64,000 bases of DNA from an uncultured Catenibacterium sp. (GTDB taxonomy: Bacteria > Bacillota_I > Bacilli_A > Erysipelotrichales > Coprobacillaceae): contig NZ_UQGV01000001.1 in the NCBI RefSeq assembly GCF_900540665.1, positions 4,967-68,966 of the forward strand, read 5' to 3'. Within the stretch, counting starts at the first letter, position 1; every line of letters begins with the position of its first letter. Below the pieces are notes generated by a model. It did no database searches, was not told the origin of the DNA, and saw nothing but the letters and a program-made list of their open reading frames with translations. Shown here in pieces: positions 45,978 to 52,143 of this stretch. The position numbers and the translations under genes were made by a program.

Positions 45978-46012
45978 AAGATGTCAGCTTTAACGGCTGA
46001 CATCTTTATTAT
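45978..46012. terminator. bidirectional terminator
   Basis: Stem gatgtcagc, loop tttaac, stem ggctgacatc, then tttatt. Confidence 0.7.
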
Positions 46013-46595
46013 ATCTTTTTGCAAGTCTCTGAAATGTGGTATGACTTATTTCCAGCATTCTTCCTGCTTCTCTTAAACTAATTAAATTATTTTCCCAAAG
46101 CTGATAAATGGAATCAAAATTCTCTGGAATATCCATAACTGGTCTACCAAACTTAACACCTTTTTCTTTTGCGATTCTAATGCCTTCGGCTTGTCTTTGT
46201 CTAATGTTTTCTCTTTCTATCTGGGCAACATAGGACAATATCTGTAATACAAGATCTGCAATAAACTTTCCTGTCAAGCCATTGATCTTATTTCTTGTAT
46301 CAAGAAGTGGTAGATCTAATACACTCACATCCACATCCTTATCTTTTGTGAGTATTCTCCATTGTTCGATAATCTCTTCATAATTTCTACCAAGTCGATC
46401 AATAGACTTAATATACACTTCATCACCGGCTTTCAGCTTTCTTAACATCTTCTTATAATTCTTACGTTCAAAATCCTTACCTGACTGCTTATCAATAAAC
46501 ATCTTACTCTTATCAATACCAGCCTCTTTCATTGCTTCTACCTGTCTATCAATATTCTGGTCTTTAGTAGAAACTCTAATATAAGCATATTTCAT
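45990..46595 (-). CDS. small serine recombinase (resolvase/invertase family)
   Basis: 201 aa with the catalytic N-terminus YAYIRVSTKDQNIDRQ (Ser nucleophile), the resolvase core and a C-terminal HTH (ISHTTFQRLAKRY). It has its own extended -10 promoter and RBS aatggagg. Confidence 0.85.
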   Translation of the reverse strand: MKYAYIRVSTKDQNIDRQVEAMKEAGIDKSKMFIDKQSGKDFERKNYKKMLRKLKAGDEVYIKSIDRLGRNYEEIIEQWRILTKDKDVDVSVLDLPLLDTRNKINGLTGKFIADLVLQILSYVAQIERENIRQRQAEGIRIAKEKGVKFGRPVMDIPENFDSIYQLWENNLISLREAGRMLEISHTTFQRLAKRYNKDVSR

Positions 46596-46699
46596 ATCCG
46601 TACCTCCATTAATTATGGAGATTATACAAAATATAAAGTTCTTATATATATTAACAAAAAACTTTACAAGTAAAAAGATTGCCTTTTGGGCAATCTCTT

Positions 46700-47122
46700 T
46701 TATAGGTTTGCATTAATAAAATCTTTGAAATAATAGTACTGTAGAGCACCAGGATACTTAGCAGTTACTTTACCATCTTTTATAATGAATGTGCAAGGTG
46801 TAGAGACATTGACGTTCAATTTCTTAGTTAGGTAATCACTAGACTTTCCTTTTGTATCAACATAATAAAGCTTATTTTTTCTATTCTTTGTCTGGTAAGT
46901 TGTCATAACTTCCTGGAAAGATTTCATTGTATTATCAGAACTATCACCTGCAACAAGAATAAAGCTATCTTTATTTTCAATCTTCTGTTCAAACTTTGTG
47001 CTTGATAAAGTTGTATAAGTTGCATATGTTGCCTGACGATAAATGAATAAGCCAAGGAAAACAACAAGTACTAATCCAAAAACACTGATTTCACGTGCAA
47101 ATTTTTTGATAAAATCTTTCAT
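46700..47122 (-). CDS. membrane-anchored thioredoxin-fold protein lacking CxxC (bacteriocin-transport-accessory-like)
   Basis: N-terminal TM anchor, then a domain resembling the thioredoxin fold (FILVAGDSSDNTMKSFQEV in place of the CxxC). Terminator at 46663-46697. Confidence 0.4.
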   Translation of the reverse strand: MKDFIKKFAREISVFGLVLVVFLGLFIYRQATYATYTTLSSTKFEQKIENKDSFILVAGDSSDNTMKSFQEVMTTYQTKNRKNKLYYVDTKGKSSDYLTKKLNVNVSTPCTFIIKDGKVTAKYPGALQYYYFKDFINANL

Positions 47123-47216
47123 CGTTCTTGTACGCCTCCGTTTAAATATTGTATCAAATTCTACCTTCTATGACAATATCTTATTGTTTCACTTTGGTAT
47201 ATAAGAATGTTATAAA

Positions 47217-47262
47217 TTAGTGGCGAAAAACCCATAGGCTTGACTATGGGATGAAAGCCACA
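47217..47262 (+). repeat. hairpin repeat A (GGCTTG loop) in the non-coding island
   Basis: gtggc-gaaaaac-ccatag-GCTTGA-ctatgg-gatgaaa-gccac forms nested stems. It is a diverged copy of the element at 47850-47890; both are followed by cacataa. Confidence 0.4.
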
Positions 47263-47402
47263 TAATTTTTACTTGAGTTAAGCATAAGGGTAAGTTTAAT
47301 AAGAAAAAACGTTTTGGCAGGTCTATAAAGAATAGATGCCCTTCTGGGTTTCAGGCTACTGTAGAAGAAAAGTTCAAGACCACAGGTGGTACATATATAG
47401 AA

Positions 47403-47684
47403 GTGCCTAATGATTATAGAGCATCACAATATGACCATACAGCAGATGAATACATAAAGAAAAAATTATCTGACAGGATGTATCATCTATCAGATGGAAC
47501 TCTAGTACAAAGAGACTGGTATTCATCATTTCTGCTGTACTGCTATGATTACAGGACTAAGAATATAGATAGAGACAGATGTATTTCAGAATTTGAAAAG
47601 TGTTACAGTAAGGAAGAAGCCTTAATTAAAAGAATTAAGATTAATAGAATCAAAGTATTGAATAGTGGAATCAAAATAGTATAA
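47403..47684 (+). CDS. orphan ORF, doubtful
   Basis: 93 aa with a weak RBS and no recognisable domain, lying inside an ~850 bp otherwise non-coding stretch. Confidence 0.2.
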   Translation: MPNDYRASQYDHTADEYIKKKLSDRMYHLSDGTLVQRDWYSSFLLYCYDYRTKNIDRDRCISEFEKCYSKEEALIKRIKINRIKVLNSGIKIV

Positions 47685-47849
47685 AATAAACATCAGGGAG
47701 ATTGATTATACTTCCATATCGTAAGATAGAAATTTACCGTTAATGTGGTCGTTGGACTGCTTGGTAATAAAAGTTCTTACTTAAATAGATTTACACTTGT
47801 ATTCCAAAGTCTGAAAATGATGTACGATTATAAGCTAAACTTGACAGTA

Positions 47850-47890
47850 AGAACCCCACGGGCTTGCCCGTGGGAGTAGTCAGTACACAT
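47850..47890 (+). repeat. hairpin repeat B (GGCTTG loop)
   Basis: ccccacgg-GCTTG-cccgtggg-agtagtcagta-cacataa. Confidence 0.4.
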
Positions 47891-47897
47891 AAGTAAT

Positions 47898-47945
47898 AAA
47901 AATACGGTTCACTTCAAAAGAAGTGTGAACCGTATTTTTTTTGTT
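47898..47945 (-). terminator. intrinsic terminator of yebC
   Basis: 14-bp stem aaatacggttcac ... gtgaaccgtattt followed by T8 on the minus strand. Confidence 0.8.
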
Positions 47946-47972
47946 ATCATAAGAAAAAAAGAATAGCTCTCG

Positions 47973-48713
47973 CTATTCTTCTTCACCATCATCATAGTTT
48001 GAAACGTTGTGATAAACCTGGTCAACATCATCACAGTCATTAAGAAGATTCATTAATCTTTCGAATAATACCATATCTTCACCTTCAAGTTCAACTGTTT
48101 CCTGTGGTTTAGTCTGGATTTCATCAACATCAAATTCAACATCAGGAAGCTTGTTTTCAATAGCTGTCTTGATTGCATTGTAATCAGTTGGTTCACCAGT
48201 AATCTTTAAGCTGCCATCTTCTAAAGTAACGATATCTTTAGGATCAACTTCGCCTTCGATTAATGCATCAATTGCAGTTTCTTCATCCATTCCTTTGAAC
48301 TGAACAACAGATTCTACATCATATAAATAAGATACTGAACCTTCAGCACCAAGCTTAGCTTTTGATTTAGTGAATGCAGGACGTACCTGTGAAATAGTAC
48401 GGTTGATGTTATCTGTTAAACATTTAACGATAACAGTTGATCCTGAAGGACCAAAACCTTCAAACTGTACACTTTCATAATCTTCTACAGCACCGTTCTT
48501 AACTTTATCAATCGCACGCTTGATAACGTCTCCAGGAACCTGATCTTTCTTTGCTTTTTCAATTAATCTTCTAAGGCTTAGATTACCGTCCGGTTCAGGG
48601 CCGCCTGCCTTCGCTGCTAAATAGATTTCTTTACCATAGTAAGAATAAAGTTTAGTTTTCTTAGCAGCAGTCTTTGCCATTGCGGCTTTACGTACTTCAT
48701 GAGCTCTACCCAT
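47973..48713 (-). CDS. yebC: YebC/PmpR family DNA-binding transcriptional regulator
   Basis: 246 aa conserved across its whole length with the YebC family (MGRAHEVRKAAMAKTAAKK..). Confidence 0.9.
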   Translation of the reverse strand: MGRAHEVRKAAMAKTAAKKTKLYSYYGKEIYLAAKAGGPEPDGNLSLRRLIEKAKKDQVPGDVIKRAIDKVKNGAVEDYESVQFEGFGPSGSTVIVKCLTDNINRTISQVRPAFTKSKAKLGAEGSVSYLYDVESVVQFKGMDEETAIDALIEGEVDPKDIVTLEDGSLKITGEPTDYNAIKTAIENKLPDVEFDVDEIQTKPQETVELEGEDMVLFERLMNLLNDCDDVDQVYHNVSNYDDGEEE

Positions 48714-48830
48714 AATCTAATTCCTCCTTGTAAATTTCCTTACACATTATAAACACAAAGGCTAATTATTTCAATAAAGAATTGGAAAATACACTGGAAA
48801 TGCATTACTATTGTATCGAGGTGTATAAAA

Positions 48831-49943
48831 ATGAAAAAGAAAATGATTATTATTGGGGGAGGTATATCAGGTATATATCTTTCTATTTTATTAAAAAAAT
48901 ATCTAGATATCGATGTTGTTGTACTAGAAGCTAATGACAAGCCATTAAAGAAGCTTCTTGCGACAGGGAATGGTCGCTGTAATCTTTCTAACAAGGATCT
49001 AGATAAGTCACATTATGATGGAGAAGCCAAACCATGGGTGAGTGATATTATTCATCACTTTGATATTGTGGAAGCTTTAAAAGATATTGGACTTTATACA
49101 AAATATATGGGCAATCTCTTATATCCTTATAGTGAATCAGCCAAAGCTGTTCAAACGTTATTCTTAAATAGAGCAGAAGAATATGGTGTGAAAATAATCT
49201 GTGAGGAAGAAGTCTTGTCTATTAAAAAGAATAAGCATGGTTATTTAATACATGCCATCAATAAGGATTATCAAGCAGATTATGTCACTATCTCTTGTGG
49301 AACACCTGCTGGCAAGTTATCTGGCATGAAAGATAGAAGAACACTTTTTAACTCTCTAGAAGTGGATTATCGTCCTATGAGACCTACTATTACTCAGTTG
49401 ATAACTGAACCTGCTTATAAGAAATTAAAGGGTGTCAGAATGAAAGGAGAATTTACTTTAAAAGGGCATAAAGAAAAAGGTGAACTTCTTTTTACGGATT
49501 ATGGCATCAGTGGGATTGCAGTAATGGTCTTAAGCCGTTATGCATGTCCTGGGGATAAAATTGTATGTGATTTCTATCCTGAATTTACTGATCAGGAACT
49601 ACATTCAATTATTCGTACATTAAAAACAATGAATGGTCCTTATGATGGTCTGGTTCATCCTAAATTAGTGCCAATAGTAGAAAATCAGAAGAACCCGGTC
49701 TCTTTCCTTAAACATCTAGAATTCACTGTTAAAGCTTTAAGAGGGGAAGAATTTGCCCAGGCAGATTGTGGAGGACTGATGATTTCCAATTTTGATAAAT
49801 CCTTTGAATTTATTAACTACCCTCATCTTTATGCGACAGGTGAAATATTAGATATCACTGGGGATTGTGGTGGTTATAACATTCATTTTGCATTAGCAAG
49901 TGCTTATTCTGTATTTGAGGAAGTTTCAAAAACAATACAATAA
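48831..49943 (+). CDS. NAD(P)/FAD-dependent oxidoreductase, HI0933/BaiN-like flavoprotein family
   Basis: Rossmann motif IIGGGISG and the family motif LLATGNGRCNLSN. Confidence 0.75.
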   Translation: MKKKMIIIGGGISGIYLSILLKKYLDIDVVVLEANDKPLKKLLATGNGRCNLSNKDLDKSHYDGEAKPWVSDIIHHFDIVEALKDIGLYTKYMGNLLYPYSESAKAVQTLFLNRAEEYGVKIICEEEVLSIKKNKHGYLIHAINKDYQADYVTISCGTPAGKLSGMKDRRTLFNSLEVDYRPMRPTITQLITEPAYKKLKGVRMKGEFTLKGHKEKGELLFTDYGISGIAVMVLSRYACPGDKIVCDFYPEFTDQELHSIIRTLKTMNGPYDGLVHPKLVPIVENQKNPVSFLKHLEFTVKALRGEEFAQADCGGLMISNFDKSFEFINYPHLYATGEILDITGDCGGYNIHFALASAYSVFEEVSKTIQ

Positions 49944-50008
49944 ATTAGGAAAAAGGTAAATAAAATCAAATATATTTGTTTTGGTATAAAAAAGGTGACG
50001 AAATTATA

Positions 50009-50036
50009 TTGACAAACCCAAATGAGATTGTATAAT
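50009..50036 (+). promoter_or_regulatory. sigma-A promoter of the liv operon
   Basis: TTGACA, a 16-nt spacer, then TATAAT. It lies 32 nt upstream of the livJ start. Confidence 0.65.
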
Positions 50037-50067
50037 AAGGGACATATACAAATTGGAGGGATAATGT

Positions 50068-51210
50068 ATGAAATTCAAAACAATCGTGACAGCTGGTGCA
50101 GTCGCAGCAATGTTAGTAGGTTGTAGTAATGGGAATTCTACTACAACAGATATCAAAGCACCTAAATTTGGTTTTATCGGTCCATTAAGTGGCGAAGCGT
50201 CTCAGTATGGTACTGCTGTAAAGAATGCTATGAAGATGGCTATTAATGACTATAACAAGAAGCATGGCACAAAGATTACAGGTGTTTATTATGATGATAA
50301 GGCTGATCCAACTACTGCCGTTAACGACTATAACAAACTATATAATGATGATAAGGTCACTGCAGTTCTTTCACCAGTAACAACTGGTTCAGCACTTTCT
50401 GTAGCAAGCGCTGCAAGCAAGAACAATACACCTATTCTTTCACCATCTGCAACAGGTGATAAATTCACTATGAATGGTAAGACAGCTTATAAGAATGTAT
50501 TTAGAATCTGTACAAATGACTCTTATGCAGGTACTTTCTTAGGTAAAGAAACAAAGACTAAATATAACTTCAAGAATGTAGCAGTTCTATATAATAAGGA
50601 ATCTGATTATTCTACTGGTGTAGCATCTGCTTATAAAGCTGAAGCGAAGAAGCAGGGTGTCAATGTTTCATTCTATGAAGCATACAATGCGAATACTAAA
50701 GATTTCTCAACATTCATTTCTAAGATCAAGCAGACTAATCCAGATGCTGTCTTCTTACCAGACTATTATGAATCAGTTGTATCTATTACTAAACAGTTAA
50801 GAGATTCTGGTGTTAAGACTACAGTCTTCGGTGCTGACGGCTGGGATGGTGTTCTTGGTGTTAAGGGTGTTAATACTGCAGACTTTGAAAACTGCTTCTT
50901 CACAAGTGGTTACAATAAAGATGCAACAAGCGGTCCAGCATATGAATTCGTAAAAGCTTACGAAAAAGAATATGGAACAACTCCAAGTATGTTCGCTGGT
51001 ATGGCTTATGATACAGTAACAGTTATGATGAAAGCTATCAACAAGGCTAAATCTACAGATCCTGAAAAGGTTAATGCAGCATTAGAAAAGATTAAGATTT
51101 CTGATGATGAAGCAGTTTGTGGTGGATTCACTTATGATAAGAACCACAATCCTGTTAAGGAATTAAATATCGTTACTGTTAAGAACGGTCAGTATGTAAC
51201 TGCAAAATAA
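50068..51210 (+). CDS. livJ: branched-chain amino acid ABC transporter substrate-binding lipoprotein
   Basis: Lipoprotein signal (LVGCSNG) plus a type I periplasmic binding fold typical of the LivJ/LivK family. Confidence 0.85.
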   Translation: MKFKTIVTAGAVAAMLVGCSNGNSTTTDIKAPKFGFIGPLSGEASQYGTAVKNAMKMAINDYNKKHGTKITGVYYDDKADPTTAVNDYNKLYNDDKVTAVLSPVTTGSALSVASAASKNNTPILSPSATGDKFTMNGKTAYKNVFRICTNDSYAGTFLGKETKTKYNFKNVAVLYNKESDYSTGVASAYKAEAKKQGVNVSFYEAYNANTKDFSTFISKIKQTNPDAVFLPDYYESVVSITKQLRDSGVKTTVFGADGWDGVLGVKGVNTADFENCFFTSGYNKDATSGPAYEFVKAYEKEYGTTPSMFAGMAYDTVTVMMKAINKAKSTDPEKVNAALEKIKISDDEAVCGGFTYDKNHNPVKELNIVTVKNGQYVTAK

Positions 51211-51220
51211 CGATGAATAA

Positions 51221-51249
51221 AGGAGAGTTCATCTCTCCTTATTTTTTTA
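51221..51249 (+). terminator. intercistronic hairpin / partial terminator between livJ and livH
   Basis: Stem aggagag, loop ttcat, stem ctctcct, then tatttttttat. Confidence 0.55.
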
Positions 51250-51270
51250 TTATAGAGGGGAGAAGTAATT

Positions 51271-52143
51271 ATGATTAACTTTATCAACCAGATCATCAAC
51301 GGACTCTCGACTGGGAGTATGTATGCTTTAGTTGCAATTGGTTATACAATGGTTTATGGTATTGCGAAAATGATCAACTTCGCACATGGTGATATCATCA
51401 TGGCAGGTGCTTATTTTGCATTAATCGCCATGGGTTTTGTTGGACCTATTCCAGCTATTATATTTTCTATAGTTGCGACTGCAGCTTTAGGTGTTTTAAC
51501 AGAAAAAGTCGCTTATAAACCTTTAAGAGGTAAAGGTTCACTTGAAGTATTGATCACTGCCATTGGTGTCAGCTATTTATTAGAAAATGTATTCTTATTA
51601 ATCTTTGGTAGTGCAGCTCGTACATTCCCACAGATCATGCCAAAGGGTACAATCAATCTTGGGGGTATATCTATCAAATATATTACTTTAATTACATTGA
51701 TTGTCACTGCGGTATGTACTGCTATTCTTTTATTCTTTATTAATAAGACAAAACTTGGTAAAGCAATGCGTGCTGTATCAGAAGACCAGGGTGCAGCTCA
51801 ATTGATGGGTATTAACGTGGATACAACAGTATCACTTACATTTGCGATTGGTTCAGGTCTTGGTGCTATTGCAGGTGTTATTTATGGATGTGCTTATTCA
51901 TTAATCACTCCATATATCGGTTTGATGTTAGGTATTAAAGCATTTATTGCAGCAGTACTTGGTGGAATTGGTAGTGTACCTGGAGCTATGGTTGGTGGTT
52001 TGATGCTTGGTGTTGCTGAATCACTTACTATTGCCTATATCTCTTCAGATTTCTCTGATGCAGTTGTATTTGGTATTCTTATTATTGTCTTATTAGTTAA
52101 GCCAGCAGGCTTATTTGGTAAGAATGTAAGAGAGAAGGTGTAG
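51271..52143 (+). CDS. livH: branched-chain amino acid ABC transporter permease LivH
   Basis: 290 aa polytopic membrane protein in the LivH family. Confidence 0.85.
   Translation: MINFINQIINGLSTGSMYALVAIGYTMVYGIAKMINFAHGDIIMAGAYFALIAMGFVGPIPAIIFSIVATAALGVLTEKVAYKPLRGKGSLEVLITAIGVSYLLENVFLLIFGSAARTFPQIMPKGTINLGGISIKYITLITLIVTAVCTAILLFFINKTKLGKAMRAVSEDQGAAQLMGINVDTTVSLTFAIGSGLGAIAGVIYGCAYSLITPYIGLMLGIKAFIAAVLGGIGSVPGAMVGGLMLGVAESLTIAYISSDFSDAVVFGILIIVLLVKPAGLFGKNVREKV

Follow-up and report, generated by a model that had tools for sequence, protein, structure and literature searches.

Insertion sequences of the IS200/IS605 family, such as IS608 of Helicobacter pylori and ISDra2 of Deinococcus radiodurans, insert 3' of a short target, which is TTAC for IS608 and TTGAT for ISDra2. 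Besides the autonomous elements there are short derivatives known as palindrome-associated transposable elements (PATEs), and it has been pointed out that PATE-like IS605 derivatives often still encode omega RNAs, which would have to be used in trans (Meers et al., PMC10055086). Here we analyse a locus of this kind in an uncultured Catenibacterium sp. (assembly GCF_900540665.1), within 64,000 nucleotides of contig NZ_UQGV01000001.1 (the window, to which all positions refer). The segment 47214-47883 (670 bp) very probably arose by internal deletion from an IS200/IS605-family element, as a non-autonomous derivative that is PATE-like and may also be described as similar to a miniature inverted-repeat transposable element (MITE). 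Two hairpins in it, A and B, are the subterminal hairpins of its left (LE) and its right (RE) end, respectively. The element and the host DNA that adjoins it are made up as follows:

47210-47213, plus strand: TTAT target site, the presumed transposon/target-adjacent motif (TAM), in host DNA directly 5' of the element
47214-47285, plus strand: LE, homologous to the LE of full-length elements in many genera
47220-47224 and 47257-47261, plus strand: outer stem of the LE
47231-47250, plus strand: TnpA-type subterminal hairpin of the LE (element A), recognised by its fold and covariation
47273-47278, plus strand: remnant of an outward promoter of the LE, with a -35-like TTGAGT; the -10 is gone through the deletion
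47286-47684, plus strand: 3' tnpB-like remnant, a pseudogene with no start codon, about codons 405-537 of 537
47702-47883, plus strand: structured RNA scaffold (putative omega RNA or right-end element RNA, reRNA), whose 3' end is the transposon boundary
47855-47874, plus strand: subterminal hairpin of the RE (element B), followed by AGTAGTCAG and the element end at 47883
47884-47903, plus strand: host flank adjoining the right end of the element, the putative guide part of the omega RNA

A sequence-only reading of this DNA had drawn attention to two related hairpins between 47123 and 47972, and both proved to be real, although their coordinates were about 3 nt off and a CA had been doubled in the transcript of A. 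Element A, GTGGCGAAAAACCCATAGGCTTGACTATGGGATGAAAGCCACATAA (47220-47265), is composed of GTGGC, GAAAAA, CCCATAG, GCTTGA, CTATGGG, ATGAAA, GCCAC and ATAA, and element B, CCCCACGGGCTTGCCCGTGGGAGTAGTCAGTACACATAA (47854-47892), of C, CCCACGGG, CTTG, CCCGTGGG, AGTAGTCAG and TACACATAA. Both lie on the plus strand. Their cores form a 24-nt direct repeat with 75% identity, 624 nt apart, and the degenerate core CCCAYRGGCTYGMCYRTGGG occurs at just these two sites in 64 kb versus 0.01 expected. When folded as single-stranded DNA, hairpin A reached -12.1 kcal/mol (z -5.2) and hairpin B -9.8 kcal/mol (z -4.2), and 0 of 200 shuffles folded as stably as either of them. The stems of A and B differ by compensated changes (CCCATAG/CTATGGG versus CCCACGG/CCGTGGG). 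Across loci, the stem of hairpin A takes the forms CCCATAG, CCCACAG, CCCACAC and CCTATAG, each with the matching 3' arm, and hairpin B shows covariation at two stem positions. An annotated open reading frame (ORF) occupying the region in relatives, together with arms that do not covary, had been named as grounds for refutation; relatives indeed have ORFs between the hairpins, yet the arms covary strongly.

The motif CACATAA, said to follow each hairpin, is present after both, at different offsets (8 nt past the foot of A and 10 nt past the foot of B). The copy behind A belongs to the conserved left end (GCCACATA...), while the copy behind B consists of the host codons Thr-His-Lys-stop, lies outside the element and is not conserved at other insertions. 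As a shared motif it was therefore rejected, and we regard its double occurrence as a coincidence. On the minus strand, T-rich runs follow both hairpins (47231-47250 and 47854-47875), which score there like intrinsic terminators; these terminator-like hairpins might halt transcripts that come into the element from the right.

The boundaries of the element were defined by comparison with its relatives. In about 30 independent full-length insertions the LE reads GTTAT, directly followed by AAATT(T/A)G(Y)GGC, GAAAA(A), the hairpin, ATGAAA and GCC, the preceding host sequence being (G/A)TTAT. The same (G/A)TTAT stands 5' of the LE in 17 contigs with the mini-element, and left of GTTAT the sites show no relation to each other in sequence. 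At the other end, 69 distinct copies all finish with AG(T/C)AGTCAG and diverge right after it. The insertion itself could be read from a filled and an empty site. A contig of the same strain (L109), which is 99.75% identical to the window over 47209-52000, carries the element within the last codons of a malic-enzyme gene, as AAA GAA GAC GTT AT, element, T ACA CAT AAG TAA. In another Catenibacterium contig (L018) the empty site reads AAA GAA GAT GTA ATT GCT CAT AAA TAA, followed by the same terminator and yebC. Comparison of the two shows that the insertion was precise, 3' of TTAT, with nothing duplicated (GTTAT, element, TACACATAAGTAA), which is the signature of the IS200/IS605 family. In the filled gene (L109:718-1890), the last four malic-enzyme codons are replaced, so that ..KEDVI THK-stop becomes ..KEDVIN-stop. 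Since the product has 390 aa in place of 392 aa, the host malic-enzyme gene with the insertion probably still works.

The interval 47123-47972 had been described as a non-coding island. It is intergenic, and the only ORF of any size listed in it has 93 aa (47403-47684), for which an exact-protein look-up returned no record. However, frame +1 between 47277 and the stop codon (47682-47684) lacks a start codon but encodes VKHKGKFNKKKRFGRS...VQRDWYSSFLL...NSGIKIV, the C-terminal ~135 residues of a TnpB-like protein, so that the region is not truly non-coding. The only part of the nuclease that has been kept is RuvC-III, with the motif QRDWYSSF. Neither Pfam nor NCBIfam gave a match for the 135-aa remnant. 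By tblastn it is 93.9% identical to residues 423-537 of an intact Catenibacterium protein, and 296 homologues were found in the protein collection, mostly called as ORFs of 143 or 221 aa. In the contigs concerned, these ORFs lie directly downstream of a Y1_Tnp (IS200-type transposase) gene, and the 221-aa ORF carries on the frame of a 272-aa ORF upstream, from which a single stop splits it. Stops or frameshifts interrupt the tnpB remnant in 7 of 14 distinct 670-bp copies, which indicates that its coding capacity is decaying.

In a scan of one genome per species, we found 111 relatives, several genomes having more than one copy. They come from Catenibacterium, Kandleria, Sharpea, Solobacterium, Holdemania, many Lachnospiraceae, Oscillospiraceae, Bullifex, Treponema and others. 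Full-length relatives, known from Catenibacterium, Sharpea, Lachnospiraceae, Bullifex and others, measure about 2.5-2.9 kb and contain, in this order, the LE, a small ORF, a Y1 tnpA, a gene for a 537-aa TnpB-like protein, a structured RNA of about 180 nt and the RE. Ten of the loci have an uninterrupted frame of 541-545 codons, preceded by a frame of about 140-150 codons and the small ORF, with an A-type hairpin on the left and a B-type hairpin on the right, 2460-2865 nt apart. The ~150-aa protein of the full-length relatives is an IS200/IS605 transposase (NF033573, E 4.7e-41; PF01797, E 5.9e-37). The small ORF, which is conserved between LE and tnpA, encodes 52-72 aa (MGTPKSNNVQVNISIP..WK..LENLARIYS...; for instance L003:3261-3419 and L061:2475-2669); it matched no family and may be a small regulator.

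The 537-aa protein (for instance L028:3053-4663) had no Pfam or NCBIfam match, and it is not recognised by the curated TnpB models (PF01385, PF07282 and the NCBIfam TnpB models), nor does it have a CCCC zinc-finger TNB domain. A single-sequence phmmer search against the Protein Data Bank (PDB) returned only noise. The family is nevertheless very large: it forms 2076 clusters at 90% identity, and at 50% there are 1809 representatives. In an alignment of 46 members, extending down to about 30% identity, D277 and E387 show no variation and D482 hardly any, within the motifs G-x-DIGTQT, ITE and QRD-YSAFL, and all four cysteines of the CCCC zinc finger are absent between ASQ and QRD. The profile of this alignment matched PDB entry 9j09 (E 4.7e-10), as well as a designed TnpB-like nuclease (E 2e-7), and 8 of these 46 distant members reached PF01385 (OrfB_IS605). 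Entry 9j09 is RdCas12n (PMC12216341). An AlphaFold model of the protein (pLDDT 94.2, pTM 0.84) retrieved with Foldseek the TnpB of ISFba1 (8iaz; E 6e-13, TM 0.69 on the target), then several Cas12f structures and the TnpB of ISDra2. Because of the D-E-D residues, the profile matches in the PDB, the members that reach PF01385 and the predicted fold, we take the protein to be a divergent TnpB clade, recognisable by profile and modelled fold only. Several entries of the protein collection (P0138, P0164, P0204, which represents 4671 member sequences, and others) are ORFs of 598-606 aa made of a Y1_Tnp fragment and the whole TnpB-like protein, and may be frameshift fusions of overlapping tnpA and tnpB genes.

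The origin of the 670-bp element could be traced to a single deletion. In the window the LE runs to about 47280-47286 and is then fused to tnpB at its GKFNKKK codons, which places the junction at about 47280-47287. In full-length elements CATAGAAT comes after TTGAGT, and homology to the loci L001, L003 and L028 resumes at 47285/47286. What was lost in this way comprises the small ORF, tnpA and roughly 400 codons from the start of the TnpB-like gene. The same junction, ACTTGAGTTAAGCATAAGGGTAAGTTTAATA, is present in L109 and, in another gene neighbourhood, in L108, with 93% identity of the latter over the whole element. An exact search with the 31-nt junction recovered 25 contigs from gut metagenomes, in most of which the element measures 670 bp; among these there are 10 or more kinds of left flank, each closing with (G/A)TTAT, and 8 or more kinds of right flank. 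As the same junction recurs at 10 or more sites, the 670-bp element is a dispersed, non-autonomous element. It has the properties of a PATE, with no functional gene, both ends intact and multiple copies at different sites, and a single copy of the hairpin-bearing element is present in the 64-kb window. From the dispersal of an identical derivative we infer that a cognate TnpA mobilised it in trans. The insertion sequence (IS) has also given rise to a 380-bp form, in which the LE is joined to 47564-47883 (L011-L014), and to a form that has kept part of the small ORF (L107). The fusion ORFs P0001 and P0002 come from further derivatives.

Downstream of the pseudogene the element carries a structured RNA. 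In an alignment of the last 260 nt of 68 distinct copies, RNAalifold predicted 55 consensus pairs in 11 helices, 19 of the pairs with compensatory changes. Paired cells amounted to 98.7%, versus 30-50% when the partners were slid by 1-3 columns, and doubly changed cells to 196, as opposed to 3-8 with the partners slid; in 500 shuffles no observed measure was ever reached. In helix 1, TTGATTAT (47702-47709) pairs with the last nucleotides of the element, GTAGTCAG (47876-47883), one position alternating between G-C and A-U. Hairpin B is the last internal helix of the scaffold. Of the consensus pairs, the copy in the window has kept 54 of 55, and all mini copies 53-55. In its position, in its end at the transposon boundary and in its partner of TnpB fold, the scaffold matches an omega RNA (reRNA), which it probably is. 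An Rfam E-value search of 46500-48500 (E <= 10) assigned neither of the hairpins nor the scaffold to a family; its top match, sau-5971 (33.9 bits versus a gathering threshold of 90), is generic and covers the host terminator hairpins at 47898-47984. Some copies carry additional structure at fixed points of the scaffold, namely an extra hairpin of about 27 nt or an expanded loop, at approximately columns 162-188 of alignment A2 (L041, L045, L046, L050, L073) and at columns 104-142 (L007, L098). These points are therefore variable and tolerate insertions.

These results bear on what the two hairpins had been supposed to be. That they are RNA elements regulating the neighbouring genes, either as paired small RNAs or as riboswitch-like leaders such as half of a GEMM-I aptamer, would agree with their stable folding, with the location of hairpin B in a conserved structured RNA and with their terminator-like appearance on the minus strand. 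However, hairpin A is always the left end of an IS beside TTAT and is found as nothing else, in neighbourhoods that are unrelated to each other, and the RNA containing B ends at the transposon boundary and travels with tnpB, as part of a guide-RNA scaffold and not of a leader. Moreover, no Rfam family matches hairpin A at E <= 10, and cmscan of 46500-48500 at this threshold retrieved no GEMM family, so that the resemblance to GEMM-I (RF01051) was dropped. Since 47214-47883 is the remnant of a mobile element, it is not a riboswitch or a new regulatory RNA, and we consider a regulatory role of this sort very improbable. Even less credit can be given to the view that the hairpins are att/res-type sites of the serine recombinase encoded at 45990-46595, flanking an invertible or excisable segment. 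The direct orientation of the repeats and the vicinity of a resolvase-type gene (PF00239, E 7.5e-30) would fit, but in many genera, at more than 100 loci, Y1 tnpA and tnpB are the companions of these hairpins and this resolvase never is, the mini-element occupies at least 10 sites without it, and in relatives the resolvase has stayed beside the 140-aa gene next to a different derivative. The suggestion of direct repeats flanking a decayed mini-element was thus essentially right, as they are the ends of a deleted IS200/IS605 element, but they are not att sites; and "recombinase target sites" holds loosely, for hairpins of the Y1 (HUH) TnpA type, and not for att or res sites, with no link to the serine recombinase.

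With the hairpins assigned to the ends of an IS200/IS605 derivative, a mode of action can be proposed, in which the steps of transposition are taken by homology from the established biology of IS608 and ISDra2. An intact copy elsewhere would supply the Y1/HUH TnpA, which would bind hairpins A and B on the single-stranded plus strand and cut after TTAT on the left and after ...AGTCAG on the right. The element would leave as a single-stranded circle, the donor being resealed, and the circle would be pasted in 3' of a further TTAT. Hairpin A has AAAA immediately 5' of its foot, in the place at which IS608 has its target-reading tetranucleotide; this parallel is offered only as a lead. If transcribed, the scaffold together with about 16-20 nt of flank (TACACATAAGTAATAAAAAT...) could load TnpB from an intact copy. 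TnpB loaded in this way could cut the emptied site (TTAT plus flank), and repair from the sister copy would restore the element, so that its retention would be favoured.

While we are highly confident of the origin and anatomy of the element as described, its working part can be contested. The element may be a dead fossil, immobile and kept by drift, with an RNA that is neither made nor used, and may now act mainly as a repeat that promotes recombination or confuses assemblers. Several observations count against an element that is still at work. Neither tnpA nor an intact tnpB is present in the 64-kb window, which leaves mobilisation in this genome unproven; tnpA is broken in many full-length copies of Catenibacterium, including the nearest ones, and was seen intact just in copies of other genera (for instance L053 and L061). 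The deletion has removed the -10 of the LE promoter, and the promoter-like site upstream of the RNA (47658-47687) is weak, with 9 of 12 matches, and lies within coding sequence, which makes its conservation uninformative. Among 14 mini copies, the scaffold has 0.053 differences per site versus 0.046 in the pseudogene; as its sequence is no better conserved, these counts do not reveal selection on the orphan RNA. In the metagenome assemblies the left flanks are combined with right flanks in varying ways, so that some sites are perhaps assembly joins, and the flanks in the window come from two insertion sites (the 380-bp/ridA site of L011-L014 and the malic-enzyme/yebC site of L109). On the other hand, the identical derivative occupies at least 10 sites, all of them with a proper TTAT, and must therefore have moved after the deletion. 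The LE is very conserved among the mini copies (0.016 differences per site), the pairs of the RNA are kept in all copies, and the same lineage is rich in intact genes for the 537-aa TnpB, including one on a contig with the same yebC flank (L110). On this evidence the fossil is a serious possibility, although we lean away from it, and continued use of the RNA may be about as probable.

A wider reading can be built on the same IS200/IS605 derivative, which we put forward as tentative and on the whole unlikely. The 537-aa clade lacking the zinc finger would be active as an RNA-guided nuclease whose TAM is TTAT, and the many 670-bp elements of Catenibacterium-type genomes would be orphan guide-RNA genes serviced in trans, each policing its own site. 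Recombination between copies would reshuffle their flanks, as at the join between the 140-aa gene and yebC in the window.

The flanks at this join do not fit together as in other contigs. The left flank in the window (the 140-aa gene, the resolvase, alr and so on) is 99.9% identical to L011-L016, where that site holds the 380-bp derivative followed by ridA-bacA-trpS. The element and the right flank match L109, in which the left neighbour is the malic-enzyme gene. In L110, a full-length element with an intact 537-aa TnpB and the same yebC flank has yet another left flank. The combination of 140-aa gene, element and yebC was not found in any other contig sampled. Since the hairpin variant is GCTTGAC both in the window and in L109, but GCTTGCC in L011, the switch lies between 47209 and 47245. 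The mismatch of the flanks is due either to recombination between copies, within or at the LE, or to an assembler join through the repeat. Users of this assembly should be cautious at the join at about 47209-47245, where the synteny of the window differs from that of every other contig sampled.

The intergenic region 47123-47972 is flanked by the start of the 140-aa gene (46700-47122, minus strand) and by the stop of yebC (47973-48713, minus strand). Two host features lie in it outside the element:

47148-47176, minus strand: promoter-like site of the 140-aa gene, in host DNA to the left of the TTAT boundary
47895-47942, no strand assigned: host terminator hairpin with T-runs on both sides, common to yebC and the former malic-enzyme gene

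The promoter-like site reads TTGTCA-17-TACAAT with an extended -10 TG (10 of 12 matches). The terminator is the inverted repeat I3, with 18-nt arms that are 94% complementary, and a diverged copy of it is present at the empty site of relatives. Directly to the right of the element, 47884-47896 (TACACATAAGTAA) is the severed end of the malic-enzyme gene and holds the second CACATAA. About 600 bp to the left of the element, a resolvase/invertase-type serine recombinase of 201 aa is encoded at 45990-46595 on the minus strand (PF00239, E 7.5e-30); its position is kept in relatives and it has no relation to the ends of the IS.

The assignment of this locus to a transposon remnant, instead of a riboswitch, a pair of small RNAs or an att site, removes a false lead. 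It also points to a very common IS200/IS605 lineage of gut Firmicutes that goes unannotated, as current family models miss its TnpB and Rfam has no entry for its guide RNA. The presumed TTAT TAM, the RE boundary and the covariation-supported scaffold would permit a direct test of this clade of compact nucleases.

Compared with IS608 and ISDra2, the lineage shares the Y1/HUH TnpA, which is present in the full-length relatives, the subterminal hairpins on one strand with no terminal inverted repeats, the insertion 3' of a short target (TTAT here) with no duplication, and tnpB as an accessory gene with a guide RNA that overlaps the right end. It differs in that the copy in the window is devoid of tnpA and of most of tnpB, that the TnpB of the family is large (537 aa), lacks the CCCC zinc finger and is unseen by Pfam and NCBIfam, and that the full-length elements have the extra ORF of 52-72 aa upstream of tnpA. 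With the PATEs of haloarchaea and Geobacillus stearothermophilus (PMC10055086), the element has in common that it is short, has no working gene and keeps both IS200/IS605 ends, that it exists in many copies which are presumed to be mobilised in trans, and that, as often in PATEs, a putative omega RNA has been kept. However, with 670 bp it is longer than is typical, because a tnpB pseudogene of 400 nt is carried along, and its origin is traceable to one specific deletion, because every copy has the same junction. Like the omega RNA or reRNA of the TnpB proteins of ISDra2 and ISFba1, the scaffold begins close to where tnpB ends, is rich in structure with a long-range closing helix, and has its 3' end at the right end of the transposon, so that the guide would come from the flank. 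This putative omega RNA differs from those described in that it matches none of them in sequence and no family in Rfam.

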